From the NCBI GenBank assembly GCA_965216295.1, contig OZ244141.1, positions 4,864 to 68,863 of the forward strand: a stretch of 64,000 nucleotides of DNA. The letters run 5' to 3'. A model generated the notes under the pieces. It was not told where the DNA came from, ran no database searches, and worked only from the letters and a program-made list of their open reading frames with translations. The translations under genes were made by a program, and so were the position numbers. Origin of the DNA: Minisyncoccota bacterium (GTDB taxonomy: Bacteria > Patescibacteriota > Minisyncoccia > Phycocordibacterales > JABAAK01). This document shows, piece after piece, positions 3,905 through 48,937 of this stretch. The first letter of the stretch is position 1. The number at the start of each line of letters is the position of its first letter.

Positions 3905-5361
<1,457 letters not shown>

Positions 5362-15180: not shown

Positions 15181-15207
15181 ACGGCATTATATTTCTGCGA
15201 CACCACT

Positions 15208-17495: not shown

Positions 17496-20400
17496 CTATA
17501 AAGAAGGTGCGCCATTGGAGTAAAAGGTGGTAACTGGAGTCGGAAGATGGATTGGTTCTTTTAGTGTTGATTGAGTTGTCGACTGCTGTTCTTGTGAGTT
17601 TTTCTTTGGAACCCCATTTTGTTTTTTTGCTGGTTGAACGATATCATTTATAAATACTGGAGTTGTCGGTAAACTAGGTGCATTGATATTTGTGTTGAAG
17701 TGAGTATTCTCTGGAATAACGATACTTTGAGGAGGTGATAGTGCTGATTTTTGTGCTCTGAGGATAGTGATTCTTTCGAGGAGTGCGTTGATTGCTTTTC
17801 TGAGCATAGTAATGGTGCCGGCGGTATCACCACGGTCTGGTTGAATAATGATTATTTCTTCTGGTATGAGTTGTTTTGGTATGGATTGTTTTGGTATGGA
17901 TTGTTCTATTTGTTCTTGGATGTGCTGTATGGTTGCTGGTCCGAGGACACCGGTTGGTGCAGACAGTCCTAGTGGAGTGAGTATCTCTTCTTTGTATACT
18001 TCTTGGTATTGTTCCAGAGCTCTCTTGGTTGCTGGTCCAAAGTATTCTGTTTCTTGTCCTGGTGATCCTGCTCCTTGGTCTGTAACGGTGAATCCTTGAT
18101 TGTTGAGGAACTGTTGTAGTTGTTTCACTTCTTTCTCTTCATCTCCTAGTTGTAACGATGTTGTAAATATAATTTTCCCGACAGGAACAATATCTTGTTC
18201 TACATCCTCACCAATGATTTTTCCTTCGCCATCATTATTGTCAAAGACGTCTGGAACGATTATAGACGTAATGGAACCGACAATTCCTCCTCCGCCGCCA
18301 CTTGAAGCTATTCTAAAAGATGGGATAGCGAAAGTATCAGCAGAGACATTCTCAACATCATCGGTAAATTGTATTGAACAATCTGAGTATGTTCCTGAAC
18401 TTGGTGAATTGAATGTAACGGTATATGTTCCTAACTCTTCGGTTGTTTCATAACTACCTTCAATTGTTTGTAAATCTTGACATTTTTCATCAAACGATGG
18501 TGTTAGAGTCTCTCCTGCTGTTCCACTAACATTAACTGTGAAGTAGGGTCTTGACTTTCTACTTGTATTTACCGCAGAGACAGAATTGATAACTGGAGCA
18601 TCATTATCTATTCGTATTTTCATTTTAACCATGTTCCCGGCTGCATCATGTACTACTACAATTGGTTTTGTATCATATTCTCCAGATGGAATGCCTGCTG
18701 GTATAATTTGCTCTGCATCAAATGTTTTTGAAGAAAGTGCCCCGTTTACTTGTATTGCATTACTATCTTCAACGACAAATGAAAGAGTTCTTGTTGTTCC
18801 TGCTTTAATAGGTGGTATGACAGTTTGGACTGGGCTGACAGTGTCTACAAATATTGTCAGTGTCGATTCTAATAGCTGCACACCATTTAAATCAAACTCT
18901 CTTACTGTGATGTTATATTCCCTGTCATTTGATCCTACAGAAGTGGGAAATGCACTCTTTGGAATTGTCACTGTTCCGCCAGTGCCGTCTCCATTGACGT
19001 ATGTACTACCATCAAAACTATACTTCCACGCTGTTCCTAATCTCTTTATTACGGTTATAGTTGAATCTGAAGTTATACCGTCTGATTTAGATATACCTGT
19101 GTCATTTGCAAGAGTTAGTGTCAAAGTGGGAGGTGTTAATGTAACATTTGCTGTACTCGCCTCACTGGCACTCCCAACAATATCATATACTATGGCTCGT
19201 ATTGTATATGTCCCAAACTCCAAGGTTGATAGGTTAAGGTTTGTTGTGTTTTCATCATTATCATTAAAAAAGTTACTAGTGTATGAACCAGATACCTGTT
19301 CATTATTTTGATTACGAATTTCATAATGAACGCTCCCTACACCACTACCTGAATCGGAAGCAGTTACGGAAACAATAAATGTTTCTGTTTTTTCTCGTAT
19401 GATTGTTGTTGCTGGTATATTAAAAGAATTGATAGTTGGAGGTGTTGTATCAGTGAATATAGTATATTTCTCATAGGAAAAATTATTGCCTTTTTGTTCC
19501 CGTATACAAATCTGAGCAGCACCATCGTTATCAAACACACCGTTATCACTCTTTATCGCAGTGGCACTATATCCAGAAATAGAATTACATGGCGTGGTCA
19601 CATTGGAGCTAGCAGCATATTGAAAAGTAAAACCTTCCGCCCCTTTTGCAACTATTATATCTATTGGCGGTGTGCTGTTTTTTACTTGTTTGCTAATATA
19701 ATGCCGGGATTCAGTGAGTACATTATCATCATGATCATAATCTATTATGGCGGGATTCTGTGTGTACGCTGATTTTTTTGTGACAGAATTAATACTTCTA
19801 ATCGGGTCGGAAGAGTTTCCTGCATTGTCATATACGCTAGCTTGTAGTGTATATGTTCCAGACAGAATGCCAGATAAATCAAGAGTTGTTGTTTGACGAT
19901 TACTAACAATTTGCTCTATAACCTCCTTAGGTGTAAAACTATTTGCAGGATCAATCGAATAGACAATTTTCCCTACCCTATTTATGTCTGCAATACCCGC
20001 CACAGTAACCTCAAATTGTGCTTGATTAGCTAATGTGATGCTATTTGAATCTGCAGAAATACCAGTAGCGGTTGGAGGTGTTGTGTCAACTATAAATTTA
20101 TATGATAAGTATGAGTAGTTGGCGTCAATGTGGTTTGTTCTTATACAGATTGTATAACCACCATCATTATCTATAACCGAATTACCAACCAAAATAGGGT
20201 TCGTACCATAATTCCTTAACGCAATATCACTACATTCTACGGCTGTACCAGACTGTATATTGTATTTGATATCAAAAAAACCTTCAATTCCATCTATAGT
20301 AATTATTGCCTGGGTTGTATTACTTTTTCCATCCTTATTTATAAAATGAATTTCTTCTGAACCATTATCATAGTTAACGATGAAATCTGCTGGTTGTAAA

Positions 20401-23516: not shown

Positions 23517-23560
23517 ACTGTAATAATTATACTATATTTTTGACACAGAGACACTCTTTT

Positions 23561-24951
23561 TTAAATATTGGGTATACTCCTCGTCCCTTCTTTCACCCGA
23601 GGGAAAAATGATCCCTGAAAACCCTCTCCCCCTGGTGGTGTAACTGACTGTTGATTTTCTACCTTTTGATCCTTTTCTTGTGGTACATCATCTTGGCTAC
23701 TTGTTGGTACGTTATCATTGGTGGAGTAAGCTTCTGGAGCACTGAAAACTCGGGAGGGTAAGTTTGCTGGTTGTATTGTTGATTCTTGTAGTATTGTTCC
23801 TTGTGTTGGTTGTACGAATGGTTGTCGTTTTTCTTCTACTTTTCGTTCTGCTGGTTTTAGTACTTCAATAGGGAGAGGAGGAATAGGGAGAGGAGGAGTT
23901 GATGTTTGAATGCTTGGTGCGCTGAGAGAATCAGGGTATCGGAAGGCACTATCAATATTGAGATCAATGAAACGGTCAAACTCTTCTCTTCTTTCAGTCT
24001 CTATCACTGCTTGTTTTTCAATCTCCACTTGTCTTTCTCTTTGCCTTTCTCTTTCATCAACATCCTCTTGTTTTTGTGTTCTGAGGGTAGTGATTCTTTC
24101 AAGGAGTGCGTTGATTGCTTTTCTGAGCATAGTAATGGTGCCGGTGGTGGTATCACCACGGTCTGGTTGTTGAATGATGATTACTTCTTCTTCTGGTATG
24201 GGTTGTTCTGTTTGTTCTTGGATGTGCTGTATGGTTGCTGGTCCGAGGACACCGGTTGGTGCAGACAGTCCTAGTGGAGTGAGTATTTCTTCTTTGTATG
24301 CTTCTTGGTATTGTTCCAGAGCTCTCTTGGTTGCTGGTCCAAAGTATTCTGTTTCTTGTCCTGGTGATCCTGCTCCTTGATCTGTAACGGTGAATCCTTG
24401 ATTGTTGAGGAACTGTTGTAGTTGTTTCACTTCTTTCTCTTCATCTCCTAGTTTGAGAGGTTTGGTGAACAAGAGTGTTTCTTGTGTTGTTGGGAGAGCG
24501 GGTGCTTTGTCGGTTACTACTTCTTCCTCTGTTGGTGTCTCTATGACTTCATCACCATTTGTTACGATTTCTGGTGCCTTGATGCTTCGTGAACCATTGC
24601 CACCACCGCTGCCGCCACTTGAAGCTATTCTAAAGGAATCAAGGGTTATGGCATTTGAGAGGTTCCCTGCTTCATCAGTGAACTGAATAGTACAGTCATC
24701 ATATGTCTCTGAACTTGGAGAGTTGATGGTGATGGTATAGTCTGCAGAATCATTTGAAGTAGAGATATACTGTCCTTCAATGACTGAGAAGTCAGAACAC
24801 TTTCCAGCAAAGACAGGGGTGAGTATCTCTTCTTCTGTAGCAAAGACAGATGCTTGATTTCTGGCAACAGTTACTTCTAAGTACGGCTTTCTCTTGTTTG
24901 ATACATTAAACTGTTCTCTGACTGATACTGTTGGTGCTTGGTTGTCTACTC
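23561..24951 (-). repeat. Copy 1 of the conserved C-terminal anchoring module shared by the giant genes (about 1.39 kb). It is nearly identical at the DNA level to 35998-37355, with a shorter related copy at about 17790-18180.
   Basis: Identical stretches of hundreds of nt are visible, for example cttggttgctggtccaaagtattctgtttcttgtcctggtgatcctgctcc in all three genes. Antisense ORFs 23906..24274, 36325..36678 and 17751..17972 encode the same peptide. Confidence 0.7.
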
Positions 24952-27900
24952 TGACTCGAAGAGAGACAGTATTACCTCCCGCATCAGTGACACTCGTATC
25001 TGACACCCTTCGCACTCCTGGCGCTGCTCCCGCAGGAACTCTCACTGCTTGGGTAAAGGAATATGGGACGGTTGTTCCAGCAATACTAATTGTAGTGATG
25101 TCAGTAAAGGTGAAAGACCTTGTATATAATTCACCATCTCCTTTGGTGAATGGGAAAGAAGTCTGGACTGGTGCTGTGGTATCTATAAACAGATTGAACG
25201 GAATTGCCCTATCTGATGTATTTCCAGCGTAATCATCTATGGTAACTGTGATACTATTTTCTCCATTTGCAAATGAATGTCCTGAAAGCCGTATCACTTT
25301 GCCTGTAGCACACTCACCACCATTGTCCACTATAGTTATAGTTCCATCAGTTACAAAAAAGTCACCGTCATAGAATTTCACTTTACTGCTATCTGTATAT
25401 GCGGAATCAGCTATGGATAGCCCACAAGCATAGATAGTTTGCCGATTTGTATTTGTGAAAGCAGCATTACTATCAAGTGTCAAAGTAGGTAATTTTACTG
25501 TATCGATGGTGATTGAGAGTAACTTAATCCTTATTGTTTCTACCGTTTCACCTACAGGAGTTATTGATCCAGCTATATCATATTCACCTTGTGGCAAAGT
25601 AATAGCATCTGTAGTAAATTGTCCAGTTGTAGCATCTGCAGCAAACTCCGGCAGTAGTGGTGCCCACGCTTCAGTGCCTCGTTCTGTTTTATATAGATGA
25701 ACGGTAGCACCTGCTGGTGTAATTCCACTGAGTCCTATTGACGTTGTTCCAACATATATTACAGATTCTACAACACTAGATATTATGCTTGTATCTGATA
25801 ATGCCAACCCTGCTACACCATCTTCTCCTTCTTTTGAGTTTTTGTATCCTTTGTTTCCTGCTACATCAGTTGCTGCAAAACAGAGTTGTTTAGGGTTATT
25901 GCCACCAGTAGTTCTCAAAATGACTGGACTTTTATATGATATATACGGTGTTTGAACAGAACAATCAACTGATGCAGCAGAAGAGGCAACAGTTGTCTGG
26001 AAACTATGCATGATTGTTGTGGTTAAATCTTCTGCGGCCGCAACAAATCCTTCGTTCCCGTTAGCAACTCCTGCTTTAATAATACTAACGACTGGAGGTG
26101 TCGTATCCACCACAAACTCTAGAGAACTGCCATACACTGAGTTTCCAGCAGCATCAGTTGTTTGTATACATATCTTTTGTGAACCTTCTGTCAGTCCCGC
26201 CGCCTCATTAGTTATTGGGTTTGTGTAGCTAGAGGTGTCGTCACACTCTACGGTAGACTCTACAAGTGCAAACGAATCAAAGATACCCGCTGTCGTAACT
26301 GTCGTACCAAGCGATATGCCTACGGTGTTGAGCCTCTTTGCCTTTTTTTCTTTATTGAGGTACTGAGGAGTTGTGAAAGTGAAAAGATCAGAAGAGAATA
26401 TAAAGGTAGAGGCAGTTGCAGGTGCTTGTGTATCGAGCGTAATTGGTAGGAGCGGTAATGGACCTACTTCTACACCATTGGCATCAGTTACGTAGCCGAA
26501 GAAGTTATTCCGACCTTCTTGTAAGTCTACCACCTCAGTCTGGAAGGTCTCATCACTTTCAACTTCAACAGGGAGATCATCTCCATCCGAATTTATAATT
26601 CTAACTCCTGTTGTTCCTGCAACAGCTGTTCCCATGAGACGAACTGATGTTGTCTTGGTAATTCTGTCACCTTTAGCAGCAGTATCATCATCGGAAACAA
26701 TACCAAACTCAGATATCAATGGATCTTGTGCGTTGACACTTGATTGATATGCATATGCTTGATAAATACCTTCAGTTAAGAGAGATGTGAAACAAGCCTT
26801 GCCTGTTGTTGTTTCGATTTCAGAACCTTGAACATAAGGGGTTGGTTCTACTGTATTTACTCCACAGGTAGCACTGCTTGATAACAAATCACTTGTTGCG
26901 ATGGCTTGCGTAGAAGTATCCAATGCAACAAAACTATTGGCATTATCTGTTCTATAGACACTCCATTTTGAAGGAGTTAGGGTCTCAGGAAATTGAATAG
27001 AATCTGATTCATTACCCGCTCTATCTTTTAATTTGTATGTTACAGTTGCAAATGGCTTGTCTGGTGATGCACTCGTTGTAATTGTGTATTGATCAGAATC
27101 CACAAGATCATATGAAGGTGTTTCTTCTATAGCAGTACTGTCGTCATATATAGAAACATCTCCCACATCACTGTCTGCATTTCTTGTAATCGTAAATGCA
27201 TGTTTATTTCCTGCGGTCAGTGTTGGGTTATATACATACACAAAACTTGCCAATTCAGACTCAGTTGGTACTACCGTATCTAGTTGTATATTCAAAATGT
27301 CTGATAGTGGGCTGTGAAGACCCCCATCATCAAACGCTTGTACTCTAATTTGATACTCTCCATCTTGAGCAAGTATCTCCTCATCAAATTCAAACACTTT
27401 TGAAAATTCATATATCGTGTTTTCACCTGAGGTGCCTGATACTACTCCCCATTCACCAGCAGATGGTTTTTCTATAGGTATTACTTTTGGAGTGTTGTCA
27501 CCGTACAGTATCGTGAGCTCAATATAATCAACCGCTGTCTCTGAGCCTGCGATTTTCTCTCCATTTGTTTTACCAAACTGTCCTGATATCTGCCATCCAT
27601 CGACCACATTGGTGATACCATCACTGTTTGATACTCCCGTGTCATCACTTTGCAGTAGTCTCAAGTTGGTTATCTTTTTTGGTATTTCCAAGAATTTAAT
27701 CTGTGTTGTATCTATTCCCTGAACCATGTTACCAGCCCTATCCACTGCAAACGCTGTGACTTGATACCAAGCATCATACGATCTCGAATTGCCATCTTCA
27801 CCAATTCCTAAATCAATATACGGTATATTAACAGAGTATCCATCTTCATTTTCCACTAGTATAGTCCCCTGTTTGTAACCACTACTCGTTGGATCAAACG

Positions 27901-35995: not shown

Positions 35996-38900
35996 TAGAA
36001 ACCTTCGCCATTAAATCGCAAAGCATCTCTTTCCACTTCCACCCGAGGGAAAAATGATCCCTGAAAACCCCCTCCCCCTGACTGTTGATTTTCTACCTTT
36101 TGATCCTTTTCTTGTGGTACATCATCTTGGCTACTTGTTGGTGCGTTACCATTGGTGAAGTAAGCTTCTGGAGCACTGAAAACTCGGGAGGGTAAGTTTG
36201 TTGATTGTGTTGTTGATTCTTGTAGTATTGTTCCTTGTGTTGGTTGTACGACTGGTTGTCGTTTTTCTTCTACCTTTCGTTCTGCTGGTTTTGGTACTTC
36301 AATAGGGAGAGGAGGGGTTGATACTTGAATGCTTGGTGCACTGAGAGAATCAGGGTATCGGAAGGCACTATCAATATTGAGATCAATGAAACGATCAAAC
36401 TCTTCTCTTCTCTCGGTCTCTATCACTGCTTGTTTTTCAATCTCCACTTGCCTTTCTCTTTCATCAACATCCTCTTGTTTTTGTGTTCTGAGGGTAGTGA
36501 TTCTTTCGAGGAGTGCGTTGATTGCTTTTCTGAGCATAGTAATGGTGCCGGTGGTGGTATCACCACGGTCTGGTTGAATGATGATTACTTCTTCTTCTGG
36601 TATGGGTTGTTCTGTTTGTTCTTGGATGTGCTGTATGGTTGCTGGTCCGAGGACACCGGTTGGTGCAGACAGTCCTAGTGGAGTGAGTATCTCTTCTTTG
36701 TATGCTTCTTGGTATTGTTCCAGAGCTCTCTTGGTTGCTGGTCCAAAGTATTCTGTTTCTTGTCCTGGTGATCCTGCTCCTTGGTCTGTAACGGTGAATC
36801 CTTGATTGTTGAGGAACTGTTGTAGTTGTTTCACTTCTTTCTCTTCATCTCCTAGTTTGAGAGGTTTGGTGAACAAGAGTGTTTCTTGTGTTGTTGGGAG
36901 AGCGGGTGCTTTGTCGGTTACTACTTCTTCTTCTACTGGTGTCTCTGTGACTTCATCACCATTTGTTACGATTTCTGGTGCTTTGATGCTTCGTGAACCA
37001 TTGCCACCACCGCTGCCGCCACTTGAAGCTATTCTAAAGGAATCAAGGGTTATGGCATTTGAGAGGTTCCCTGCTTCATCAGTGAACTGAATAGTACAGT
37101 CATCATATGTCTCTGAACTTGGAGAGTTGATGGTGATGGTATAGTCTGCAGAATCATTTGAAGTAGAGATATACTGTCCTTCAATGACTGAGAAGTCAGA
37201 ACACTTTCCAGCAAAGACAGGGGTGAGTATCTCTTCTTCTGTAGCAAAGACAGATGCTTGATTTCTGGCAACAGTTACTTCTAAATACGGCTTTCTCTTG
37301 TTTGATACATTAAACTGTTCTCTGACTGATACTGTTGGTGCTTGGTTGTCTACACGAACCAATAACTCAATACTGTTTCCTGAGAGATCGGCAACGAATA
37401 GTCCAGTAGATCTAGTTCCAACTTCCGCAGCAGATGGAACAGCAACTTCTCTGGTGAAGGTGTTTTGTATCCTTGTATTTGCTGCGTTATTGTTTATTAT
37501 CTGTAGTTCGTTTGCATCGGTAACGGTAAATGAAAGTCTTTTGGTAACACCAGATTGTACAAAAGGAAAGCCTGTCTGAACTGGTGCTGTAGTATCTACA
37601 GTAAATGTGCCAATACTGGTTGATGCAACATTACCTGCGTAATCTTCTGCTTGAACGGCACAATTGTTGTAGACAAATCCGTCTTCAAGTGCTGACCCAT
37701 TTGATGATGTAAGTGTGATAGTTTTTGAACCTGTTAGGAAATCACTTAACGGTGTATTAGTGCCACATAATCCTGTAACACTCAATCGTACATACTCCTC
37801 AGCTTGTACACGTATAGCGGGTATTGTGAACGATGTTATTCTTATAACTGGTGCGGAGTTGTCTATTACTAGATCAAAAACTTTTACAACAGTGGTGTGT
37901 GGTGAATCTGCAGATGGTTTGATAGAACCGGCTACATCATAGTCTCCACTTGAAAGTGATACTGATTCTGAAACAAAGCTACCATCTGTGCCAGAGTTTG
38001 TGGTTAACACATGTAATGCATTTGATTCTGACCAGTCTGTGTTGCCCTCTAGTGCTATATATAACTTTACTTCTGTATTTGGTGATGTCTGTCCCTTAAA
38101 TGTTACTGAGTTTGCCTTTGTATATCTTTTATCATCTCTTGAAGTTCCAGGAGCGCTATCATCAATTGTAATACTTGCTATTCCCTCTATTGCTCTTTTT
38201 GAATTTCTGTATCCTATATTTCCTGCTGCATCAGTTGCCTTGAAACATATTTGATTGTTGGTAGATATGGTGCCACCAGTATATGAAGTATATGAGGATG
38301 AGTAACCTTGAGCAGAACAATTTTCAGCAGCGGCACTGTTGGCTTTGTCTGTCTGAAAACTTTGTATTGTTGTGGGCGTCAAGTCGCTTACCGTTGCTGC
38401 AAACGTATCATTCCCTACTTTTATTATTGTTATGTTCGGTGTCGTGATGTCTACTGTAAAGAGGAATGAGTTGGATGTACTGTATGCCGTGTTACCAGCT
38501 ATATCAGAATTTTTAACACATATCTTTTTATCACCATCAATTAAGCCTACGTTGTCATTTGTTATTTCTTCGGTGTAATCAATCACACTACTATCACATT
38601 CAGTCGTTGCATCAACAATTGCATAGTTATTAGATACACCAGTAACCGCAGTCACAGATCCTAATGATGCTGGTGTGCCTGTGCTGTATATGTTTGCACC
38701 ATTTAGATATTTTGTAGTGGTGCCGGTTAACAATGCAGATGGAGTGAACTTTGATATTGCTGGACTCTTTGTATCTAAAGTAATGGTTGGAAGTGTTGTT
38801 GGCCCTATCTCTGATCCATCTATAGTGATGTAGCCTGAAAAAGTGTTTATTCCTTCATGTAATTCAGTCGATGGAATATTGATAAGTCCATTGTCATCAG

Positions 38901-41900
38901 TAGTACCGTTGTATACTTCTGTTTCATTTTTTTCAAAAACATCAACTTTAAACTTTCCTGTAAACAAAGCTTGTCCTTTGGTGATAGAGCTACCTGGCTC
39001 AATTGGTTCTCTTAGTTCTGCAATTCTAGTAAATTCAACACCAGTGGTACTCCCAAAATTCCCACTGGTGCTCCATCCTTTTACATCATATGATTTACCA
39101 GACTCTTCATTGGTTATTCTTATGTATGCCTTCTCAAAAAATGCATCGGTACCAATATTAAATCGATACGCAATCCCATTGATTTCAAGTGCAGTAAGAG
39201 TATTAAAGAGATAGGTTATTGTTTCAATAACCACATTTTTCTCTTCTGAGGTACCCTTTCCCAAAGTAAAAGAGATGATACCTCCTGGGGCTTCTCCAAG
39301 ATTAGATACCCGCAAATTATTTTTCGAATACCCTGTATGCTTATTATTATCTCCAGTTTGACCACCACTAGTAATCACTCCGCCATAAACAGATTGATGT
39401 ATAACTCTAGCTGGAGTGTTTGGTAGAGTGACACCTTGAAGATCTGGAGACACTACGTTGGTTATCCTGTCATTATTAGACACGCCTGTATCTTCATCTG
39501 CCACAACACTAAAGTCTGATATTAACGAAGAAGCTCTTTTTGAATTTTTGTATCCTATATTTCCTGCTGCATCAGTTGCCTTGAAACATATTTGATTGTT
39601 GGTAGATATGGTGCCACCAGTATATGAAGTATATGAGGATGAGTAACCTTGAGCAGAACAATTTTCAGCAGCGGCACTGTTGGCTTCGTCTGTCTGAAAA
39701 CTTTGTATTGTTGTGGATGTAAGATCATTTGCCACTGCTATAAATTCATCATTGCTTGAAGAGTCTTGCCCTACTTTTATTATTGTTATCTCTGGTGCCG
39801 TAGTGTCTACTGTAATATTTGTGCTCCCGTATACCGTGTTACCAGCTATATCAGAATTTTTAACACATATCTTTTTATCACCATCAATTAAGCCTGCATT
39901 GTCATTTGTTATTTCTTCGGTGTAATCAATCACACTACTATCACATTCAGTCGTTGCATCAACAAGTGCATAGTTATTAGATACACCAGTAACTGCAGTC
40001 ACAGATCCTAATGATGCTGGTGTGCCTGTGCTGTATATGTTTGCACCATTTAGATATTTTGTAGTGGTGCCGGTTAACAATGCGGATGGAGTGAACTCTG
40101 GTACTGCTGGACTCTTTGTATCTAAGGTAATAGTTGGAAGTGTTGTTGGCCCTATCTCTGATCCGTCTATAGTGACGTAACCCAAGAAGTTGTTTACTCC
40201 TTCTTGTAATTCAGTCGCTGGAATATTGATAAGTCCATTGTCATCAGCAGTACCGTTGTATATTTCTGTTTTCGCTTTTTCAAAAACCTCAACTCTAAAC
40301 TGTCCTGTAAAAAAAGCTTGTCCTTTGGTGATAGAGCTACCTGGCTCAATTGGTTCTTTTAGTTCTGCAATTCTAGTAAATTCAACACCAGTGATACTCC
40401 CAGTATTCCCAATGCCGGTCCAGCTTTTTACATCATATGATTTACCAGATTCTTCATTGGTTATTCTTATGTATGCCTTCTTATTAAAAAATGTATAGGT
40501 GTCAATATTAAATTGATACGCAATCCCTTGGACTGAAGCTTCAGTATCATCAAAGATATAGGTTATTGTTTTAATAACCACATTGCTCTCTTCTGAAGTA
40601 CCCTCTCCCAAAGTAAAAGAGGTACCGCTTGCTGGAGCTATTCCAAATCCAGTCTTATCAGTCCCAGATATACTGTCCGAATACCCTGTATGCCTATTAT
40701 TATTTCCTAGTGCATTAATACCACCAGTAAACACTTCGTTATAAACAGATTGGTAACCGTCGTGTATAACTCTAGCTGGAGTGTTTGGTAGAGTGACACC
40801 TTGAAGATCTGGAGACACTACATTGGTTATCCTGTCATTATTGGACACACCTGTGTCTTCATCTGCCACAACACTAAAGTCTGGTATCAATGAACTTTCT
40901 GCATTACTACTGGTCTGGTAAGAGTTGGTTTCATACCGTCCTTCAGTTAAGCTAGACTGAAAACATACTGTTGCTTCAGAAATATTTACCACGGTACCTT
41001 CTGTGTAAGAATCATATCCGTCGGATACACAACCTTCAGATTTTTTTAAGATAGTACTTGAAGATGTATCATCAACTGCAACATATTGAGTAGCATCTCC
41101 TTCAACATCATAGATACTTATCTCTACAGGGACTATGGGAAGTATGATAAGGTCTGATATATTACCTGCTGCATCAACTAATTTATATCCTATGGTCAAA
41201 GGAAGATCACCAAGGGTGGTATAGGAACCATTAAAAATATTACTTGCATTAAAAACATAATTGCCTTCATTGTATATATTACTTTCCGTATCGTCGTCAT
41301 TAATTCTTACTATCTCTATGTCTCTAACGTCACTTGCGTCGTTTCTAGATGCTGTAAATGTGTGTTGAGTGTTCGAATTATTTTCTACGATTTTGTTATA
41401 TGCATATTTAAATGTTAATAGATCTTCTGCTACTGGAACTATGGTATCAAGAGTTACATTTAATGCGTCAGAAGACGCTCCTTCTTCTCCACTGGCGTTA
41501 AATGTCCTTGCTCTTATCTCATATGCCCCATCGATACCTACAAATCCGTTTTCATTTAACGAAATTGCCTCACTAAACTGATAAATTGTATCATCACCAG
41601 ATCCTGTTGATGCCCACCCATCATCTGGTTTCGGTATGTCTACTGTTCTTACATTAGATGTTCCGTCTGTGGTGGGATAACCAATACTTATCTGAACTAA
41701 TGTTACTGTTGTTTCAATATCAAAGTTTTTTTCTCCTTGTGTCTTTGGAAATTCACCAGAAATTGTCCACACATCATTATCGCTAGTGATATTATCATCA
41801 TCTGCTACACCTGCTGTATCATCATCAGAAGACAAGTCTATATTCTCTGGAATAGGTGGCGCTTCTAAAACCTTAATGTTTGTAGTATCTGATCCTGCTC

Positions 41901-44900
41901 TCACGTTACCCGCATAGTCTACAACATACGCACCAACCCTATACCATGTGTTATAAGGTCTATCTACACCCAGAGATACGCTTGGTATTTGTATATTCAA
42001 TCCGTTTCCGCTCGGCGTTGTTGTAATCTGTTGAGTTTGACTTCCCTCCTTTGATGGTAAGAACCAATCATCACCTTCTACAGTCTGAAATCCATTGACA
42101 CTGTCTTCTACTAATTGGTGGAATAGTATATAGTAGTAGTCAACACCAAAATTAAGATCTGTTGTTGTTTCTGATTTACCGCTTGATATAAACGTTATGT
42201 CAGTCTTAGAAGTTTGTTTGTCCCTACATTGACTTGTTTCTGGTGTTCGACAACTATCACTGTCTGGATTCAGGTTTAAATCTTCACTCCAAGGCTGAGG
42301 AGCTTGTGTATCAATAGATAGTGTTAATATTTCAGAAAAGTCAGATACGTTTCCTGCATCATCAACTTGTAGTGCAACAAAGTAAAAATCTTTTTCAATA
42401 TTTTTCTCATCACCATTTATACCCACAGTAGAGTACGCCTCAACATCTCGAGTACCATCACTCTCTGTGTTTTTATCTTTGAACAAGTTATTAGAACCGT
42501 ATATGTGAGCAGAAACGGTCGTGTGAGGGTCTGCTGGAGCATTTTGAATTGGTGTCAGTGTAGCAATTACTCCTTCGGGAAGCTCATAGAAAAGAAGTTG
42601 GTGTTTATCTATGTCATCACCATCAGATGGTGTGAGTGCAAAGGATAAATCCCTAGTTTTTTTTGTTATGTTATCATCGTCTGTCCCTACTCTAAATTCG
42701 TTTTCGTATTTCCCAAATGAATCATCCTCTGCAGCCAAGTCGGGTATGCGAGGCGCTGCTGGTGCTACGGTGTCTATTGTAATTGTAAGATCGCCTAAAT
42801 ATCCAGACTTGTTTCCAGCCTTATCTTCTATTTGGAAACGAATTTTATATGTACCATCAGTAAATGCATTGCCATTTCCAAAAACAGCATCCGTAGTACC
42901 ATCAACTGGACCTGAAATTACTTTTGATAGTTCGGTTAGTTCGCCTCTCTCTACATTATTATTACTATTACCGTCAACCCAAATGTATGTTGTTACTGCT
43001 GAGTTTTTTTCAACATTTACAATTGTAAAGCCTGGTGTTGTGTCATTTGTTTTATTATCTCCCTGTGTACCTGAATCACTTCCACTTGCGAGTGTGATTA
43101 CTGAAGACTCAGGTGCTTTTACGCCAGAGTCTACTGTGACATCAAAAGTTGGTGGCTGTATGTATTCTTCTACTGCTTTTATTACAACAGCTTTGAAGTT
43201 TGTAGTATTAATTAAAATAACAGTACCTTTCGTTACCAATAATGGAGTAGGATATATTCCCACTGGATATAAAACTGAGTTGATAGTCAATGGATAATTA
43301 CTTTCTGTTATTGTGTAGTCTTTCTTAAAACTTAATCTAAAAATAGTTTCTGTTAGTGTGGATGAGGACGGGTATATGCCTCTATCGGAACAATCACGGA
43401 CCTTATTGCTAAGGGTCCATTTACATATGCCATAATCCCCACGTATGTTTGTTATAATATTTTGACCGCTAGAAGTATCAAATACTTCCACAATCTCTGA
43501 TTCGTTTCCTGCATCATCTGTTGCGGTGGCTTGTATTGTATTAAGCGTTCCTTCAACTGATGAGTCGGTATCACTCTGCGGTACCGTTATTGTGTATTCA
43601 TTGCCACCGCCAGTACAGCCACTACCATCTGCCGTAGTTGTTGTAGATATGGATGAAGCGGAGGTGCCGATATATATTTTAATTGTTGAACCTGTCTCGG
43701 CACATCCTATGAAGGTTAGTCCAGCAGATAAGTCTTGCGTGTAGTTATCAGAGTCACCTCCTGCAAGTCCTTCCCTAAATGTATCGCTAGCAGAATCAAG
43801 ATCTATACTTGGAGCTGCTGGTGCTGCTGTATCTTTTGTAACTGTATGTGTCACTGACTGGCTTGTGTTCTCTGCGTTGTCTGTAATCGTAATAGAGAAT
43901 GTTAGAGAGCCATCTGTAAGTGTACTTAAATCAAGATCTTTTGATGCGACACCATTTCCAAAACTAGTGATGGTACCTGAAACTGCAACATTTGAAGAGT
44001 CGGTGACTGTGTAGGCAAGAGATGCTGCATCGGCCGCTATGTTTTCTACTCTTAAAGTGTAAGCAGATTGGTTGTCTATGTTTACATGAGTTGGCATAGC
44101 ATCGGAACCCGCAGTATCAAACTGATGTCCTGTGGGAGCTGTTGTGTCTATTGTAATTGTAAGATTACCGAGAGATTGTGTGGTTTTATTTCCAGCTTTA
44201 TCTTCTATGTGATGTGTAATAACATACGAACCGTCTGCAAGCACGGCATTACTAACAGAGTCATTTGAATTAAATACGTAGCTTGGAACATCATTTCCAA
44301 AGGCGACATTTACATTGCCGTCAGTTGATCCTTGCAATGTTTCTGATATGAGAATCGTTGTACCTGCTTTAGTTGCATATGTGGATACAACTGAATATTT
44401 TTCAACGTTTGTGACTGTGAAGGTTGGTCTGTTACTATTTGTTTTATTATCTCCTGATGTACCTGAATCACTTGTGAGTGTGGTTGCCGGAACAGGAGAT
44501 GTCTTTACTCCAGAGTCTATCGTGACACCAATACCAATTTGGGAGACAACAGTATCAGGAGCAAGATATCCTTGAATATTTCCGTTCTTTATAAAATATA
44601 TAAAAACAGTAGTTCCACTTTCCACGGTCACCGGTAAACTTAGCTCAGTGCTTTCGCTTCCATAAAGATCATCACCGATTCTCAATTTCATTTTGTCATC
44701 ACCCAAACTTGTTAATGTCAATCTTCTAGTAAAAGTCAACTTAGCAAAGAACCTATTATCCCCTTGTAAATTTTTTGAACCCACACGAGTACTGCAATTT
44801 AGATTGTACTGAGTAGGTTCAGTACCATTAGTAATATGGGATAAAGCGTTAATTAGAGCAGCATTACAATTACTATAGTATCTGCTGTCTGATACTATAT

Positions 44901-47142
44901 TTTCAGAAGTTGAGAGTGCTTCTGTCTCTGAACTATTTCCCGCATCATCTGTTGCGGTGACATGTATTGTATTAAGTGTTCCCCTAGCTGAGAATGATAC
45001 ATCAGCTTTTTGTACGTCTATAGTGTATTCTTTACCATCAGTACAAGAGTCGCCACTTGCTAGTGCTGTATCTGATATGGGATCAGCATCCCCATCAATA
45101 TATATATTAATTGTTGAATCTGCCTCTGCACATCCAGTAAAAGTCAAAGTATTCGAAGCTTGTGTGTAGTTATCAGAGTCACCCCCTGCAAGTCCTTCCC
45201 TTGATGTATCGGTTGTAAGACTTATACTTGGAGCTGCTGGTGTCACAGTGTCTACTGTAATATTTTTGCTTCCGTATGCTATGTTTCCACTTGCCGTTTC
45301 TGTCCCTCTGATACAAATTGTTTTCTCTCCTTCTGACAATCTTGAGTCTTTGTTTTGTATAACATCAGCTGTAAATGTTGTTGTTGCATCACACGTAGCA
45401 TCAAAACCATCTATAACAGCAGATGAAAATGTAAAACCTTCAGAGAGTTCAAACAAAGAAAAAGCGTTATCATCTTTACCCACTTTATTTAAATAATAAC
45501 TCCCATTGTTTTCGTATAGATTAGATGAAAGTGAAATTGTAAAATCAGATGCCGTTGTTTGTTTAGCAAAACGAACTTTTTCATCTACCGTGTTGCCTGC
45601 TGCATCAGTTGCTCTTGCACAGATTTGATAAGTACCATCATTCTCTGATTCAAAACTTGATATGAGGGGTGCTGCATCTTTTGTGATGCTGCTTGCACAA
45701 GGTGTATTTCCAGAAGAGATGAGTCCAACTGCAGTTGAATATTTTACTGTTGCAGCATTGGTGTCTGTTGCGGTTATTGAGAACACAGGATTGCCCCCTG
45801 AGTTTGCAAGTGTTGTTGTTGTAATGGCAGGAGTAGTTCCAGATGTGAGAGCTGAATCAAAGGTGGGTGTACCAAATGTAGGATCGGTCTTGTCTATCGT
45901 GACAGATGTTCCATTAAGAGAAAAAGATGTCCAATTCTGAGTCCCCATTTTGTTTGATGGTGTTGCTGTATCCCCAAAACCAGATACAGTAAAATCGTTA
46001 ATAGTAAGTAGTTTCTCATCCCCATCCTCAATAGTAGTCCCATCATCACCACCAATCACATATGTAGCTAAAACAGTGTTTCCGGTGATATCTTTGGAAA
46101 AGGCTGGTTCTGCCAAAAAATACGCGATTGCATTATCATTAAAAGCGAGGGTTTCATCAAAGGTTATTAGTACTTCGATGGTGTCACCGTCGTTTGCATA
46201 TCTGTTATTCCCAGATGATGGCAGACAACCCGTACACCCAGTAATTTCTACACCAGTTACTGTCGGTGGAGTGGTGTCTGCTGCTTGTGGTACTGCATAT
46301 GCCAAAGGGGTACCGTAAGTGCCTGGAAGTGATGATTCATCTTCAACTAATGAATAACTAAAAGTATAATCTTCTCCCGAAGATAAATCTACTGTTGGGC
46401 GTAAAAATAATTTCGTATCTGTAGGCTTGTAACCTTTTATTATAGTTGGTGATGAAGATACAAGAAATTTTACTGTCCAATCACTTTGCACTGCCACCTT
46501 GTTTTCTTCTGTAATGTCAGGACTTCCGTCAATGTTGTAATCAGTATATGTTCCATCAGATTTCACCACCCTTGTTGGGAGGTTCGCATCATTTTCACCT
46601 TGCACACTTGTTAAGACCCAATTTTCTTTAAGATTAAATTGAACAATAACACGGGCAGTAGCAAAAGGGAGCACATAGGTAAGTGCATTAAAATTACCAC
46701 AGGCAACGGTGCCTTCACCTCCAAGAGTAATATTGGGTTGCAAAAATCCTGTCTTACACTCCTCTGTGTCATCACTCACCAGCGCAACACTAGCGGGCAC
46801 TGGAATAGCACCGTGAGTATAACCAGTTACTTTTGTAAGAATATTCTGAATAACTGTTGCAAAATCTGAACTGCCAGATGCTTCCCATTCTGTATCTTGC
46901 TGGGCAATTCCTACGAAAGATTGAACTGCAAAAAAATCACCCGGTTGACCCGTAATACTTATCACAGGTCTTGCCGGGTTTGTGTCATCCTCAAGGATAG
47001 GAACAGATGTTGTACCAACTGCAAACACAATCTGAATAAAAAGGAAGGTGCAGAAAACTACCAACAAACTCGCAATCACTTTTGGAACAAGTGACGTTAT
47101 AAGTTTTGACAAACCTTTAGGTAATAAAATTTTTTCCTGCAT
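35995..47142 (-). CDS. Giant secreted/surface protein of 3715 aa. It contains an internal tandem duplication of about 455 aa and the shared C-terminal peptidoglycan-binding module.
   Basis: Signal peptide LLVVFCTFLFIQIVFAVG. Duplicated block SSLISDFSVVADEDTGVSNNDRITNVVSPDLQGVTLPNTPARVIH ... ICFKATDAAGNIGY(K/R)NSKRA. C-terminal VDNQAPTVSV..PG-binding..ITMLRKAINALLERITTLR. Confidence 0.8.
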   Translation of the reverse strand: MQEKILLPKGLSKLITSLVPKVIASLLVVFCTFLFIQIVFAVGTTSVPILEDDTNPARPVISITGQPGDFFAVQSFVGIAQQDTEWEASGSSDFATVIQNILTKVTGYTHGAIPVPASVALVSDDTEECKTGFLQPNITLGGEGTVACGNFNALTYVLPFATARVIVQFNLKENWVLTSVQGENDANLPTRVVKSDGTYTDYNIDGSPDITEENKVAVQSDWTVKFLVSSSPTIIKGYKPTDTKLFLRPTVDLSSGEDYTFSYSLVEDESSLPGTYGTPLAYAVPQAADTTPPTVTGVEITGCTGCLPSSGNNRYANDGDTIEVLITFDETLAFNDNAIAYFLAEPAFSKDITGNTVLATYVIGGDDGTTIEDGDEKLLTINDFTVSGFGDTATPSNKMGTQNWTSFSLNGTSVTIDKTDPTFGTPTFDSALTSGTTPAITTTTLANSGGNPVFSITATDTNAATVKYSTAVGLISSGNTPCASSITKDAAPLISSFESENDGTYQICARATDAAGNTVDEKVRFAKQTTASDFTISLSSNLYENNGSYYLNKVGKDDNAFSLFELSEGFTFSSAVIDGFDATCDATTTFTADVIQNKDSRLSEGEKTICIRGTETASGNIAYGSKNITVDTVTPAAPSISLTTDTSREGLAGGDSDNYTQASNTLTFTGCAEADSTINIYIDGDADPISDTALASGDSCTDGKEYTIDVQKADVSFSARGTLNTIHVTATDDAGNSSETEALSTSENIVSDSRYYSNCNAALINALSHITNGTEPTQYNLNCSTRVGSKNLQGDNRFFAKLTFTRRLTLTSLGDDKMKLRIGDDLYGSESTELSLPVTVESGTTVFIYFIKNGNIQGYLAPDTVVSQIGIGVTIDSGVKTSPVPATTLTSDSGTSGDNKTNSNRPTFTVTNVEKYSVVSTYATKAGTTILISETLQGSTDGNVNVAFGNDVPSYVFNSNDSVSNAVLADGSYVITHHIEDKAGNKTTQSLGNLTITIDTTAPTGHQFDTAGSDAMPTHVNIDNQSAYTLRVENIAADAASLAYTVTDSSNVAVSGTITSFGNGVASKDLDLSTLTDGSLTFSITITDNAENTSQSVTHTVTKDTAAPAAPSIDLDSASDTFREGLAGGDSDNYTQDLSAGLTFIGCAETGSTIKIYIGTSASSISTTTTADGSGCTGGGNEYTITVPQSDTDSSVEGTLNTIQATATDDAGNESEIVEVFDTSSGQNIITNIRGDYGICKWTLSNKVRDCSDRGIYPSSSTLTETIFRLSFKKDYTITESNYPLTINSVLYPVGIYPTPLLVTKGTVILINTTNFKAVVIKAVEEYIQPPTFDVTVDSGVKAPESSVITLASGSDSGTQGDNKTNDTTPGFTIVNVEKNSAVTTYIWVDGNSNNNVERGELTELSKVISGPVDGTTDAVFGNGNAFTDGTYKIRFQIEDKAGNKSGYLGDLTITIDTVAPAAPRIPDLAAEDDSFGKYENEFRVGTDDDNITKKTRDLSFALTPSDGDDIDKHQLLFYELPEGVIATLTPIQNAPADPHTTVSAHIYGSNNLFKDKNTESDGTRDVEAYSTVGINGDEKNIEKDFYFVALQVDDAGNVSDFSEILTLSIDTQAPQPWSEDLNLNPDSDSCRTPETSQCRDKQTSKTDITFISSGKSETTTDLNFGVDYYYILFHQLVEDSVNGFQTVEGDDWFLPSKEGSQTQQITTTPSGNGLNIQIPSVSLGVDRPYNTWYRVGAYVVDYAGNVRAGSDTTNIKVLEAPPIPENIDLSSDDDTAGVADDDNITSDNDVWTISGEFPKTQGEKNFDIETTVTLVQISIGYPTTDGTSNVRTVDIPKPDDGWASTGSGDDTIYQFSEAISLNENGFVGIDGAYEIRARTFNASGEEGASSDALNVTLDTIVPVAEDLLTFKYAYNKIVENNSNTQHTFTASRNDASDVRDIEIVRINDDDTESNIYNEGNYVFNASNIFNGSYTTLGDLPLTIGYKLVDAAGNISDLIILPIVPVEISIYDVEGDATQYVAVDDTSSSTILKKSEGCVSDGYDSYTEGTVVNISEATVCFQSSLTEGRYETNSYQTSSNAESSLIPDFSVVADEDTGVSNNDRITNVVSPDLQGVTLPNTPARVIHDGYQSVYNEVFTGGINALGNNNRHTGYSDSISGTDKTGFGIAPASGTSFTLGEGTSEESNVVIKTITYIFDDTEASVQGIAYQFNIDTYTFFNKKAYIRITNEESGKSYDVKSWTGIGNTGSITGVEFTRIAELKEPIEPGSSITKGQAFFTGQFRVEVFEKAKTEIYNGTADDNGLINIPATELQEGVNNFLGYVTIDGSEIGPTTLPTITLDTKSPAVPEFTPSALLTGTTTKYLNGANIYSTGTPASLGSVTAVTGVSNNYALVDATTECDSSVIDYTEEITNDNAGLIDGDKKICVKNSDIAGNTVYGSTNITVDTTAPEITIIKVGQDSSSNDEFIAVANDLTSTTIQSFQTDEANSAAAENCSAQGYSSSYTSYTGGTISTNNQICFKATDAAGNIGYKNSKRASSLISDFSVVADEDTGVSNNDRITNVVSPDLQGVTLPNTPARVIHQSVYGGVITSGGQTGDNNKHTGYSKNNLRVSNLGEAPGGIISFTLGKGTSEEKNVVIETITYLFNTLTALEINGIAYRFNIGTDAFFEKAYIRITNEESGKSYDVKGWSTSGNFGSTTGVEFTRIAELREPIEPGSSITKGQALFTGKFKVDVFEKNETEVYNGTTDDNGLINIPSTELHEGINTFSGYITIDGSEIGPTTLPTITLDTKSPAISKFTPSALLTGTTTKYLNGANIYSTGTPASLGSVTAVTGVSNNYAIVDATTECDSSVIDYTEEITNDNVGLIDGDKKICVKNSDIAGNTAYSTSNSFLFTVDITTPNITIIKVGNDTFAATVSDLTPTTIQSFQTDKANSAAAENCSAQGYSSSYTSYTGGTISTNNQICFKATDAAGNIGYRNSKRAIEGIASITIDDSAPGTSRDDKRYTKANSVTFKGQTSPNTEVKLYIALEGNTDWSESNALHVLTTNSGTDGSFVSESVSLSSGDYDVAGSIKPSADSPHTTVVKVFDLVIDNSAPVIRITSFTIPAIRVQAEEYVRLSVTGLCGTNTPLSDFLTGSKTITLTSSNGSALEDGFVYNNCAVQAEDYAGNVASTSIGTFTVDTTAPVQTGFPFVQSGVTKRLSFTVTDANELQIINNNAANTRIQNTFTREVAVPSAAEVGTRSTGLFVADLSGNSIELLVRVDNQAPTVSVREQFNVSNKRKPYLEVTVARNQASVFATEEEILTPVFAGKCSDFSVIEGQYISTSNDSADYTITINSPSSETYDDCTIQFTDEAGNLSNAITLDSFRIASSGGSGGGNGSRSIKAPEIVTNGDEVTETPVEEEVVTDKAPALPTTQETLLFTKPLKLGDEEKEVKQLQQFLNNQGFTVTDQGAGSPGQETEYFGPATKRALEQYQEAYKEEILTPLGLSAPTGVLGPATIQHIQEQTEQPIPEEEVIIIQPDRGDTTTGTITMLRKAINALLERITTLRTQKQEDVDERERQVEIEKQAVIETERREEFDRFIDLNIDSAFRYPDSLSAPSIQVSTPPLPIEVPKPAERKVEEKRQPVVQPTQGTILQESTTQSTNLPSRVFSAPEAYFTNGNAPTSSQDDVPQEKDQKVENQQSGGGGFQGSFFPRVEVERDALRFNGEGF
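35998..37355 (-). repeat. Copy 2 of the conserved C-terminal anchoring module.
   Basis: Same as above. It differs from copy 1 by small in-frame indels (ERERQRERQ versus ERERQ; PIPPLPIEV versus PIEV). Confidence 0.7.
38190..40930 (-). repeat. Intragenic tandem duplication inside the 3715-aa gene: two units of about 1.37 kb at roughly 85-90% identity.
   Basis: For example 38161-38340 and 39540-39700 are nearly identical (atttctgtatcctatatttcctgctgcatcagttgccttgaaacatatttgattgttggtagatatggtgccaccagtatatgaagtatatgaggatgagtaaccttgagcagaacaattttcagcagcggcactgttggct). Confidence 0.65.
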
Positions 47143-47198
47143 ACTATTCTCTATAGAAAGAATACCATATAACCTGTGCGTATTTTGTATATATTAAC

Positions 47199-47930
47199 TT
47201 AATCAATATATTGTAATATTTCAAGATCAACCAACGCATTCAATTCATCTTGGCTGGCTTTTCTAGAGAATATTTTTGAGAAAAACCTTACAAATGACAC
47301 TTTTAATGAGCTTTTTGCCACCTCCCCGTCTTTTAAGACATATTTCTCTATACCGTCCTTGTTTTTAAGAACCAATGATTTTGTTTGGTTATCAACATAT
47401 ACTCTCATTTCTGTATAACCAAACAGTATTGGCGTCTCAACAGTTACCGCACCACTTTCTTTGTCTACAAACACTTTTATATCTTTACTACCCTTTCTGA
47501 TAACAGCATGACCATCACGAAATGAAACATTCTGATCATCAAGGAGTGACCTGTATTCCTGAGAAACCAAAACACCTTTATTGAATTGACTCAAAGTCTT
47601 TTCGGTAACAATCGACGCCACATCCCCATCTTTGTTGTAAAAAATCTCAGTACCGTTTACCTTTTTTTCAAACACCCTTTTCCCATCGTCATCAAATGCC
47701 TCTATCCTGCCATCAGGAAAATACCTTTTCTCCAATTTCTGAGAAAAAAACTGCTCTACAACACCTCCCTCTGACCGCACCCATCTTGTGTAGCCATCTG
47801 TCTCAACATACTCACTGGTAGTCGTCAGTTCTGTGGCAACCTCCTCTGGCACCTGAGCATTCGCGGTACCGACAAAAACAAAAGCTGCTACAAAATACAA
47901 GAAAGGTAATATAACCATATATAACTGCAT
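47199..47930 (-). CDS. Hypothetical secreted protein (signal peptide, MORN/YwqK-like short repeats).
   Basis: Signal peptide ILPFLYFVAAFVFVGTANA. Repeated DG..E..DD.GK / Y.KDGD motifs. It lies directly upstream of the giant-gene block on the same strand. Confidence 0.45.
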   Translation of the reverse strand: MQLYMVILPFLYFVAAFVFVGTANAQVPEEVATELTTTSEYVETDGYTRWVRSEGGVVEQFFSQKLEKRYFPDGRIEAFDDDGKRVFEKKVNGTEIFYNKDGDVASIVTEKTLSQFNKGVLVSQEYRSLLDDQNVSFRDGHAVIRKGSKDIKVFVDKESGAVTVETPILFGYTEMRVYVDNQTKSLVLKNKDGIEKYVLKDGEVAKSSLKVSFVRFFSKIFSRKASQDELNALVDLEILQYID

Positions 47931-48649: not shown

Positions 48650-48884
48650 GTTTAATTATGTTCTTCCTCTGTTCTTCTGTTAGAGAACTTTTAAAATCTT
48701 TTATACGTGTTGAGTTACATGTGTTTTTCATAACAATATACTACCCACCTATCAATAGCACTACAAACAAAGACTAACTATCAAGTTCATGATAGCACGA
48801 GGAATAGCGTCACACAACCATATAGGATATGTGGTGTAGAGAGCAGATATTGATAGCAAAACCAAAAAAGTAACTCTATTTGTA

Positions 48885-48925
48885 TGTATTTAGGGAATAT
48901 GGGCAATGGGTGGTATAATTGACAT
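48885..48925 (+). promoter_or_regulatory. Candidate promoter for the antitoxin-toxin pair, with an extended -10 (TGgTATAAT at 48911-48919).
   Basis: A TATAAT hexamer with an upstream TG sits about 20 nt before the ATG at 48938. The -35 is weak. Confidence 0.3.
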
Positions 48926-48937
48926 ACAGAAAGTAGT

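Follow-up and report, generated by a model that had tools for sequence, protein, structure and literature searches.

To our knowledge most bacteria of the candidate phyla radiation (CPR, or Patescibacteria) are uncultured, and we know of no account of partner attachment outside the Saccharibacteria and of no attachment mechanism for Parcubacteria-type cells. CPR bacteria have giant surface proteins for which a role as host-recognition fibres has been suggested (PMC8080830; PMC13059738). The ten longest proteins of Vampirococcus are 1392–4163 aa (PMC8080830), and the same trend is seen in the Absconditicoccaceae (PMC13059738). Adhesins are essential for the epibiotic growth of a Saccharibacterium (PMC10633639), and peptidoglycan-binding proteins have been noted in Ca. 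Nealsonbacteria (10.1101/2022.04.20.488981). The locus described here is a tandem array of three giant genes, A, B and C, in a window of 64,000 nt, the whole stretch of DNA that was analysed, from contig OZ244141.1 of a Minisyncoccota bacterium. The three encoded proteins share a C-terminal peptidoglycan-binding (PGB) anchor module and are probably paralogous, Sec-exported, fibrillar adhesin-like proteins, with the C-terminus held non-covalently to the cell's own wall.

Gene A (17496..23516) encodes 2006 aa, with a signal-like N-terminus, approximately six super-repeats and the C-terminal anchor module. Gene B (23561..35995) encodes 4144 aa, with a signal-like N-terminus, two tip modules and a partial copy of one, many Ig-like modules and the anchor module. 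Gene C (35995..47142) encodes 3715 aa, with a signal-like N-terminus, a tip module, Ig-like modules that include an internal duplication and the anchor module. All are on the minus strand, as are the features within them. The original prediction of these open reading frames (ORFs) was exact in coordinates and lengths, and its figure of 46% of the window agrees with the 29,647 nt (46.3%) that they occupy, which is also ~5.8% of the 511,782 bp source contig. A chance origin of such long ORFs is impossible in DNA of 40% GC. The prediction allowed that stops might appear in the frames under an alternative genetic code; there are no internal stops under table 11, and the genes end in TAG, TAA and TAA. 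An alternative code is not needed, and the dense intact genes of the window rule out a code in which UGA is sense. Stop usage among the 27 window genes is 15 TAG, 11 TAA and 1 TGA, a strong bias against TGA as a stop, yet TGA is clearly a non-sense codon.

Giant Ig-repeat surface proteins are already known from CPR genomes. Vampirococcus lugosii and the Absconditicoccaceae likewise have small genomes in which a large share of the coding capacity is given to surface proteins of 1392–4163 aa with adhesion-type domains, for which a fibrous coat has been proposed (PMC8080830, PMC13059738). A, B and C belong to this descriptive class of proteins (longer than ~1400 aa, predicted to be surface-targeted, with adhesion-type domains, from a reduced genome), which is not a homology family. 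The Absconditicoccaceae proteins differ in their PKD, WD40, DUF11, integrin, FN3 and Ca-stabilised repeats and in their inferred membrane localisation, and that lineage uses code 25, whereas the array here uses the standard code. A PGB anchor, a tandem array and a homogenised anchor cassette are described in neither PMC8080830 nor PMC13059738. The new features of the present locus are the lack of sequence relatives, the tandem triple, the C-terminal PGB domain, helix and Pro-rich tail on such large proteins, the bounded conversion tracts, and a PGB variant that is a widespread modular anchor.

Fibrillar adhesins follow a grammar of N-terminal head, stalk and C-terminal anchor, and PG_binding_1 is on the list of their anchor domains (PMC8286594). 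Of the features that define a fibrillar adhesin-like protein in that study, A, B and C have the repeated stalk domains (Big_3_2 is named there as a stalk) and a recognised anchor, but not a known adhesive domain. The likeness to the monoderm fibrillar adhesins Cna and SasG/Aap lies in the Sec signal, the long tandem Ig-like stalk, the putative N-terminal distal binder and the C-terminal wall anchor. Unlike these, A, B and C have no LPXTG-like motif near the C-terminus or other sortase signal, no C-terminal transmembrane (TM) or hydrophobic segment, no Pfam match to Gram_pos_anchor and no known adhesive Pfam domain. Their stalk is mostly of a lineage-specific Cys-pair variant, a further helix and a Pro-rich tail follow the wall-binding domain, and their lengths of 2006–4144 aa are at the extreme of the size range.

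The RTX adhesins of type I secretion systems (T1SS), of the SiiE, BapA, LapA and MpIBP type, share with A, B and C the Big_13 extenders with D.G.S..D.ITND..P and D.AGN...VDT.AP motifs. They are likewise acidic and very long, with ligand-binding modules apart from the stalk. In contrast to them, A, B and C have no RTX repeats (no Pfam match to HemolysinCabind or RTX), no T1SS signal and no N-terminal retention module. Instead they have an N-terminal Sec-type signal and C-terminal PGB retention, and their cell shows no sign of an outer membrane.

As a terminal wall binder with variable passengers, lineage-wide reuse and flexible linkers, the anchor resembles the SLH, CWB2, LysM, GW and choline-binding modules (PMC4973711 for CWB2). 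The PGB domain here differs from these modules in being present as a single copy, not in tandem, and in being followed by a helix; no SLH or CWB2 repeats were matched by Pfam in A, B or C. Compared with classical PGB domains, which are mostly from wall-active enzymes and not from giant structural proteins, the variant here has two insertions (GSPGxETxY and EILTP.GL..). All NCBIfam matches were below their cut-offs, with NF033510 (Ca_tandemer) at 16–18 bits against a cut-off of 50. The earlier statement that the proteins match no named adhesin type is correct at the family level, with no LPXTG, RTX, SLH or CWB2 feature, NCBIfam scores that are all sub-cut-off, and a body without homologues.

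The C-terminal anchor module

The C-terminal module foreseen from the sequence is present in A, B and C. It is made up of a Cys-pair beta domain (KC.D...DC.IQFTD), a Gly-rich linker, a PG_binding_1 domain, a helix (ITMLRKAINALLERIT) and a Pro-rich tail. In the profile search PG_binding_1 (PF01471) scores 32–33 bits in the three proteins against a gathering cut-off of 23, and 35–36 bits on isolated C-terminal pieces. The Pfam match spans residues 1794–1865 of A (17922..18137) and 3434–3505 of C (36628..36843). The terminal Cys-pair beta-sandwich of B is at residues ~3706–3785 (24641..24880), and its equivalents are at residues ~1655–1735 of A and ~3286–3365 of C.

Structure prediction with AlphaFold2 (AF2) of residues 3680–4024 of B gives, in order, the beta sandwich (predicted local distance difference test score, pLDDT, 65–80), a disordered Gly/acidic linker, the PGB domain (pLDDT >90), a short linker and a 67-residue helix (pLDDT 84–94). 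This check bears out the PGB fold, as the modelled three-helix fold is superimposable on solved PGB domains. The helix is predicted to be continuous over residues 3951–4017 (23945..24145). It has an amphipathic, heptad-patterned start (ITMLRKAINALLERITTLR) and then an E/R/Q-rich part, which is found in B and C and not in A. Past the full helix, the C-terminal tail of B is 127 aa (23564..23944), Pro-rich and charged, without a TM segment or sorting motif. If the count starts where the shared amphipathic helix motif (ALLERIT...QK) ends and runs to the stop, the tails are 83–169 aa with 9–15% Pro, a range in which the counts for B and C take in the E/R/Q-rich part of the helix.

The ends of the three genes are far more alike than their bodies. 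Sliding-window comparison of B and C reveals a tract of ~1.4 kb (23564..24988 in B, residues ~3670 to the end; 35998..37395 in C, residues ~3250 to the end) with 95–100% nucleotide identity, which has a sharp edge at approximately B residue 3670 and extends to the stop. Upstream of this edge B and C are 22–57% identical in amino acids, the codons of identical residues mostly differ, and the sequence is saturated. The tract in A (17748..18164, residues ~1785–1923) covers the PGB domain and amphipathic helix only, and is 92–99% identical to B at the nucleotide level. To either side of it the sequence has diverged, with 48–62% amino acid identity in the beta domain and 30–45% in the tail. The core that is homogenised in all three genes is therefore the PGB domain plus helix, at 92–100% DNA identity. 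Near-identity of this core, with sharp tract edges amid saturated bodies, points to repeated gene conversion; on this comparison of sequences it is gene conversion that keeps the PGB domain and helix near-identical. Such homogenisation implies selection for an identical anchor. The tracts are a clear case of concerted evolution limited to the anchor, in genes with passenger domains that have diverged beyond recognition.

The PGB domain of the array is a variant with the signature GAGSPG[NQS]ET.YFGPAT...EILTP.GL (also written GAGSPGxETxYFGPAT...EILTP.GL), for which there were 76 protein matches. At least 523 confirmed matches to the variant were found in species-representative Patescibacteria genomes. 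Its carriers include Paceibacterota and Kaiser-, Roizman-, Nealson-, Yonath-, Wildermuth- and Giovannonibacteria, among others. Where anchor homologues have an informative organism name, all are from Parcubacteria, Paceibacterota or other Patescibacteria metagenome-assembled genomes (MAGs); a few anchor loci carry the automatic labels 'uncultured Gammaproteobacteria' or 'uncultured bacterium'. A, B and C belong to an informal group of PGB-anchored secreted proteins of the Patescibacteria, which is defined by the GAGSPG[NQS]ET variant and has it at a protein terminus beside a Gly/Ser-rich linker.

Sequence context was inspected for the best 80 loci of the at least 523 matches. The variant is terminal in all 80 host ORFs. 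In the N-terminal form it comes right after the signal peptide in proteins of ~1150–1250 aa, often with an amphipathic helix before the PGB domain. In the C-terminal form it is at the extreme C-terminus of proteins of 800–1590 aa, with an FN3-like Cys-pair domain and a Gly/Ser linker before it. None of the 80 host ORFs is longer than 1600 aa. The passengers are mutually unrelated, being NHL propellers, Big_7, InlB B-repeat, FN3 and TIG domains. Since the same variant is terminal on unrelated passengers, it behaves as a modular anchor. It is found on hundreds of large secreted proteins of the Patescibacteria and could be used to predict CPR surface proteomes, and it is a possible basis for CPR-wall affinity probes and for the choice of candidate determinants of host range.

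Two families stand out among these loci. One, seen in L012, L068 and approximately 35 other loci, is very common in the Patescibacteria and has proteins of ~1150–1250 aa with a signal peptide, an amphipathic helix, the PGB variant and then ~1000 aa without a Pfam match. Proteins of this family are candidates for a major envelope or S-layer component of these bacteria. The other is of Roizmanbacteria type (L042, L006, L021, L011, L013 and L017). Its proteins, of ~1520–1590 aa, carry NHL beta-propeller repeats and the FN3-like Cys-pair domain, and at their very end a PGB domain preceded by a Ser/Gly linker. At L011 a tblastn match into the next ORF raised the possibility that the helix is a separate gene elsewhere, but this ORF encodes an unrelated TM/coiled-coil protein.

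Stalks, tips and export signals

The Ig-like nature of the bodies is upheld by profile search, with Big_13 (PF19077) scores of 46, 85 and 151 bits in the three proteins against a Pfam gathering cut-off of 27. Piecewise Pfam scans find Big_13 in several separate stretches along B and C, and weaker Big_3_2, Big_3_3, Big_6 and PKD-like signals spread over the bodies; Big_3_2 in A passes its cut-off (31.6 bits against 23.3). The module boundary motifs that had been pointed out, of the form D-x-x-[AP]-P, do exist, although at 6, 8 and 10 copies they are fewer than was implied. A more general signature of the modules is a conserved Cys pair with D.AGN...VDTT.P. Cysteines are almost only found paired, 19–49 residues apart, and the 35 pairs mark candidate modules of ~100 aa. 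Well-aligned copies have the pattern YLN..P.I.T...Y.I.S...C...Y...I...DG.Y.IC...D.AGN.SY...F.VDTT.P, in which the C-terminal motif is typical of Big_13. Judged by sequence, this Cys-pair stalk module is a lineage-specific variant. Iterated profiles find ~27 Cys-pair and ~40 Big_13-like modules, in overlapping sets; their combined coverage is 67% in A, 53% in B and 39% in C.

Layout of the modules differs between the proteins. In A, each super-repeat combines a Cys-pair Ig-like module with an Ig module of Big_13-like type, and the period is 212–444 aa. B and C are collinear paralogues over residues 2339–4144 of B and 1319–3715 of C. Gene C also has an internal duplication of ~450 aa (~1.35 kb) at 38143–40900, in which 38482–38781 and 39829–40128 are up to 97% identical in DNA; the duplication is recent. 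It holds an insert of ~250 aa (AYIRITNEESGKSYDVK...) without a family match.

No relatives of the bodies or tips were detected. A, B, C and the FtsH encoded in the same window are each singleton clusters at 90% identity. With residues 30–480 of B as the query, an exhaustive HMMER search of 1.84 billion cluster representatives recovered no protein other than B. A 1001-aa body segment searched against an index of 5.8 billion proteins matched only single Big_13 domains, at ~14% coverage, mostly in Salmonella Ig-like repeat proteins. The body match with the best coverage (P0089, 31%) was set aside as a relative, being from an unrelated context and sharing only Big_13. A profile of 17 Cys-pair modules had no matches in an index that evidently does not hold the window's own proteins, the last 436 aa of B had no relatives in GTDB species genomes and JGI metagenomes, and a profile of the body conserved between B and C had only single-domain Big_13 matches in metagenomes. 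On the evidence of these searches, the bodies and tips are sequence orphans beyond single Big_13 domains.

The N-terminal ends of B and C carry tip modules. Tip module 1 of B (residues 45–335; 34991..35863) has an Ig-like part and then ~200 aa predicted to be all-beta, and has no Pfam family and no homologue outside protein B. An internal copy, tip module 2, is at residues 1690–1985 (30041..30928), and there is a partial copy at residues 325–480. The tip module of C (residues 42–300; 46243..47019) is a distant relative of the B tips, with 22% identity. Recurrence of the tip within B, at 1690–1985, suggests that this gene arose through the fusion of two ancestral genes. A low-confidence model of the tip matches almost only galactose-binding-domain-like folds (discoidin, CBM32), a hint of a possible glycan-binding head at the tips of B and C.

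In line with the signal peptides that had been proposed, each of the three proteins has a signal-like N-terminus, judged by hydropathy over 19 residues and an AXA-like site. Each has a single region of strongly hydrophobic 19-mers, which is N-terminal, with 26–41 residues above the hydropathy threshold, followed by the AXA-like site (AAA/L, TFA/V and VFA/V).

Fibrils and the alternatives

In the favoured model, the C-terminal PGB domain would bind the cell's own peptidoglycan non-covalently after export, the heptad-patterned helix might bundle or oligomerise, and the Pro-rich tail might thread through the wall. The acidic Ig-like stalk would point outward for ~70–190 nm, if modules of ~100 aa and 3.5–4.5 nm each are assumed. 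At the far end of the stalk in B and C, the N-terminal tip would touch the surface of a partner or host, perhaps as a glycan-binding domain of discoidin/CBM32-like type. The identical anchor would fit one shared binding site in the wall, and the divergent bodies and tips would provide different binding specificities. With ~6% of the ~0.5-Mb contig spent on three secreted fibres, the array is likely to be central to the lifestyle of the organism.

Several observations weigh against this model. There is no known adhesive Pfam or NCBIfam domain in A, B or C at any threshold used, and protein A has no recognisable tip module. The AF2 tip model, made from a 3-sequence alignment, has a pLDDT of only 42. 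Matches of the tip profile to PDB sequences (pectate lyase C at E=0.0026 and fatty acid-binding proteins at ~0.03) were judged to be noise, as they are inconsistent both with each other and with the AF2 model. The extension of helix plus tail is absent from all of the C-terminal-PGB examples inspected in other Patescibacteria. Export, anchoring and adhesion are all inferred for these proteins, and if the N-terminal segment is not cleaved the polarity of the model flips.

In that reversed arrangement an uncleaved N-terminal membrane anchor would hold the protein, and the C-terminal PGB domain and Pro-rich tail would bind the peptidoglycan of a host or prey cell. The length of the N-terminal hydrophobic regions speaks for this, and an epibiont on a bacterial host might gain from binding host murein. 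Solved PGB domains are common in proteins whose targets are foreign or cell walls, including endolysins and the VgrG3 effector, and the strict conservation of the PGB domain and helix would also fit a single shared host ligand. This is unlikely, however, given the AXA-like cleavage sites after all three hydrophobic segments and the putative lectin-like tip at the opposite, N-terminal end. Host peptidoglycan is also usually behind an outer membrane or S-layer, and elsewhere the variant is found right after the signal peptide of proteins of ~1200 aa or at the C-terminus without another anchor, which is the pattern of binding to the own wall. There is also only a small chance that A, B and C are parts of an S-layer or sheath, which would mainly protect and shape the cell. 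Parcubacteria-type cells do have S-layers and thick sheaths in cryo-electron microscopy, with peptidoglycan-binding proteins suggested as contributors (10.1101/2022.04.20.488981), SLH and CWB2 S-layer proteins are likewise large secreted proteins held at the wall by a domain that binds it non-covalently, and the investment of 5.8% of the contig would fit a coat. Yet strings of 20–40 Ig-like modules are typical of extended fibrils rather than lattice formers, three divergent paralogues are present in place of one dominant protein, and there is no match to SLH, CWB2 or an S-layer family. The widespread ~1150–1250 aa family with an N-terminal PGB domain is a better candidate for an S-layer protein in the Patescibacteria. 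The evidence thus favours extended fibrils over a lattice-forming S-layer.

Non-covalent anchoring without a sortase motif could also be seen as transient retention only, of a shed or loosely bound matrix for cell aggregation or of decoys for phages or proteases, and fast-evolving orphan bodies are as would be seen under diversifying phage or host pressure. This is improbable, because the anchor cassette is the most conserved part of all three genes and is homogenised between them, a pattern that points to retention at a particular site as the function under selection. It is highly improbable that the giant ORFs or their near-identical 3' ends are artefacts of collapsed or chimeric repeats in a metagenome assembly. 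The 1.4 kb shared by B and C at 95–100% identity and the internal repeats of C at up to 97% are hard for short-read assemblers, and all three proteins are singletons known from one contig only. Against an artefact, the frames are open over 6–12 kb without frameshifts, the repeat copies differ by scattered positions and indels, the bodies are strongly diverged from each other, and the contig is long (512 kb) with ordinary flanking genes.

A broader form of the fibril model is possible, though doubtful. The PGB domain, joined here to a helix, may be a modular display system across the Patescibacteria, analogous to sortase/LPXTG, SLH and CWB2. The array might then be the principal apparatus for partner attachment, with three fibres of 70–190 nm, of which two would bear interchangeable lectin-like tips. 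Gene conversion would keep their anchors identical, to fit one wall receptor. If true, this would give a concrete molecular handle on host recognition by Parcubacteria-type CPR cells.

Expression of the array and its genome context

Genes A, B and C are probably co-transcribed. The TAATG overlap reported at 35995, where the stop codon of C runs into the first ATG of B, is present, and so is the spacer between B and A, which is 44 nt rather than 45. In gene B, codons 7, 11 and 16 are also in-frame ATGs, all ahead of the hydrophobic core, so the overlap at 35995 is possibly not at the true start. Promoter and terminator scans at the array gave only background-level signal. Genes A and C begin a few bases past a TATAAT-like or TATAGA-like element (tagtataattattacagtATG and ctatagagaatagtATG) in the spacers at 23517–23560 and 47143–47198, and there is no evident Shine-Dalgarno sequence ahead of either start. 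Both genes may be leaderless or have very short leaders, and a separate promoter for A may lie within the array. Phase variation was considered and rejected, with no long homopolymer or simple sequence repeat tracts close to the gene starts and no convincing invertible element.

Upstream of C is a co-oriented ORF of 243 aa (47199..47930, minus strand), which had been described as encoding a secreted protein. It has a signal-like N-terminus with a hydrophobic segment and an ANA/Q site, in keeping with that description, and no Pfam or other family match. Co-transcription of this ORF with the array is possible. Between this ORF and a tRNA-Ser/tRNA-Pro pair, at 47993–49426, are a minus-strand ORF of 218 aa and a divergent ORF of 162 aa with a SocA/Panacea antitoxin domain (69.5 bits). 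The two may form a toxin-antitoxin module, or they may mark the border of an island beside the giant genes.

The earlier view that the organism has a small genome is borne out by the 511,782 bp contig, a 16S gene with no adjoining 23S gene, a minimal envelope gene set, and a PGB variant that is found only in Patescibacteria-type MAGs. By these features the genome belongs to the CPR/Patescibacteria and is probably Parcubacteria-like; comparison of its 16S gene and flanking proteins with the retrieved anchor loci gave no finer placement. Housekeeping and envelope genes of the window include those for SecD/F, FtsW/RodA, MurA, a MurD-like ligase, PyrG, RecG, Dcd, Ung and FtsH. The presence of MurA, FtsW/RodA and the MurD-like ligase indicates that the organism makes peptidoglycan. 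The full-length 16S rRNA gene is at 3907–5368 (minus strand, 1335 bits) with neither 23S nor 5S next to it, and the rRNA genes are unlinked, at least inside the window. There are also a tmRNA gene and four complete tRNA genes, with a fifth tRNA gene cut by the window start. One of the tRNA genes is a tRNA-Ile(UAU) at 55203–55276 (minus strand); the UAU anticodon is a rare route for the decoding of AUA in bacteria.

At 98–3490 (minus strand) a single ORF of 1130 aa contains a TrwB/VirD4-like coupling ATPase (residues ~28–343) and a complete MurD-like Mur ligase (~705–1108), linked by ~350 aa of Pro/Lys/Gly-rich low-complexity sequence. This is either an unusual fusion or two genes joined by a sequencing error. 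Two overlapping ORFs at 60204–62329 (minus strand) are in the part of the window with the lowest GC (0.32–0.36). The ORF of 321 aa has a DPPY-type DNA methyltransferase motif (LLFIDPPYNLNKDF), and the pair is probably a restriction-modification module. Just downstream of A, at 13783–15870 (minus strand), are two genes, one for a malate:quinone oxidoreductase-like FAD protein (89.5 bits) and one for a secreted protein with a DM13 'electron transfer' domain (61.5 bits). CPR genomes are usually described as fermentative, and such redox genes are unusual there.

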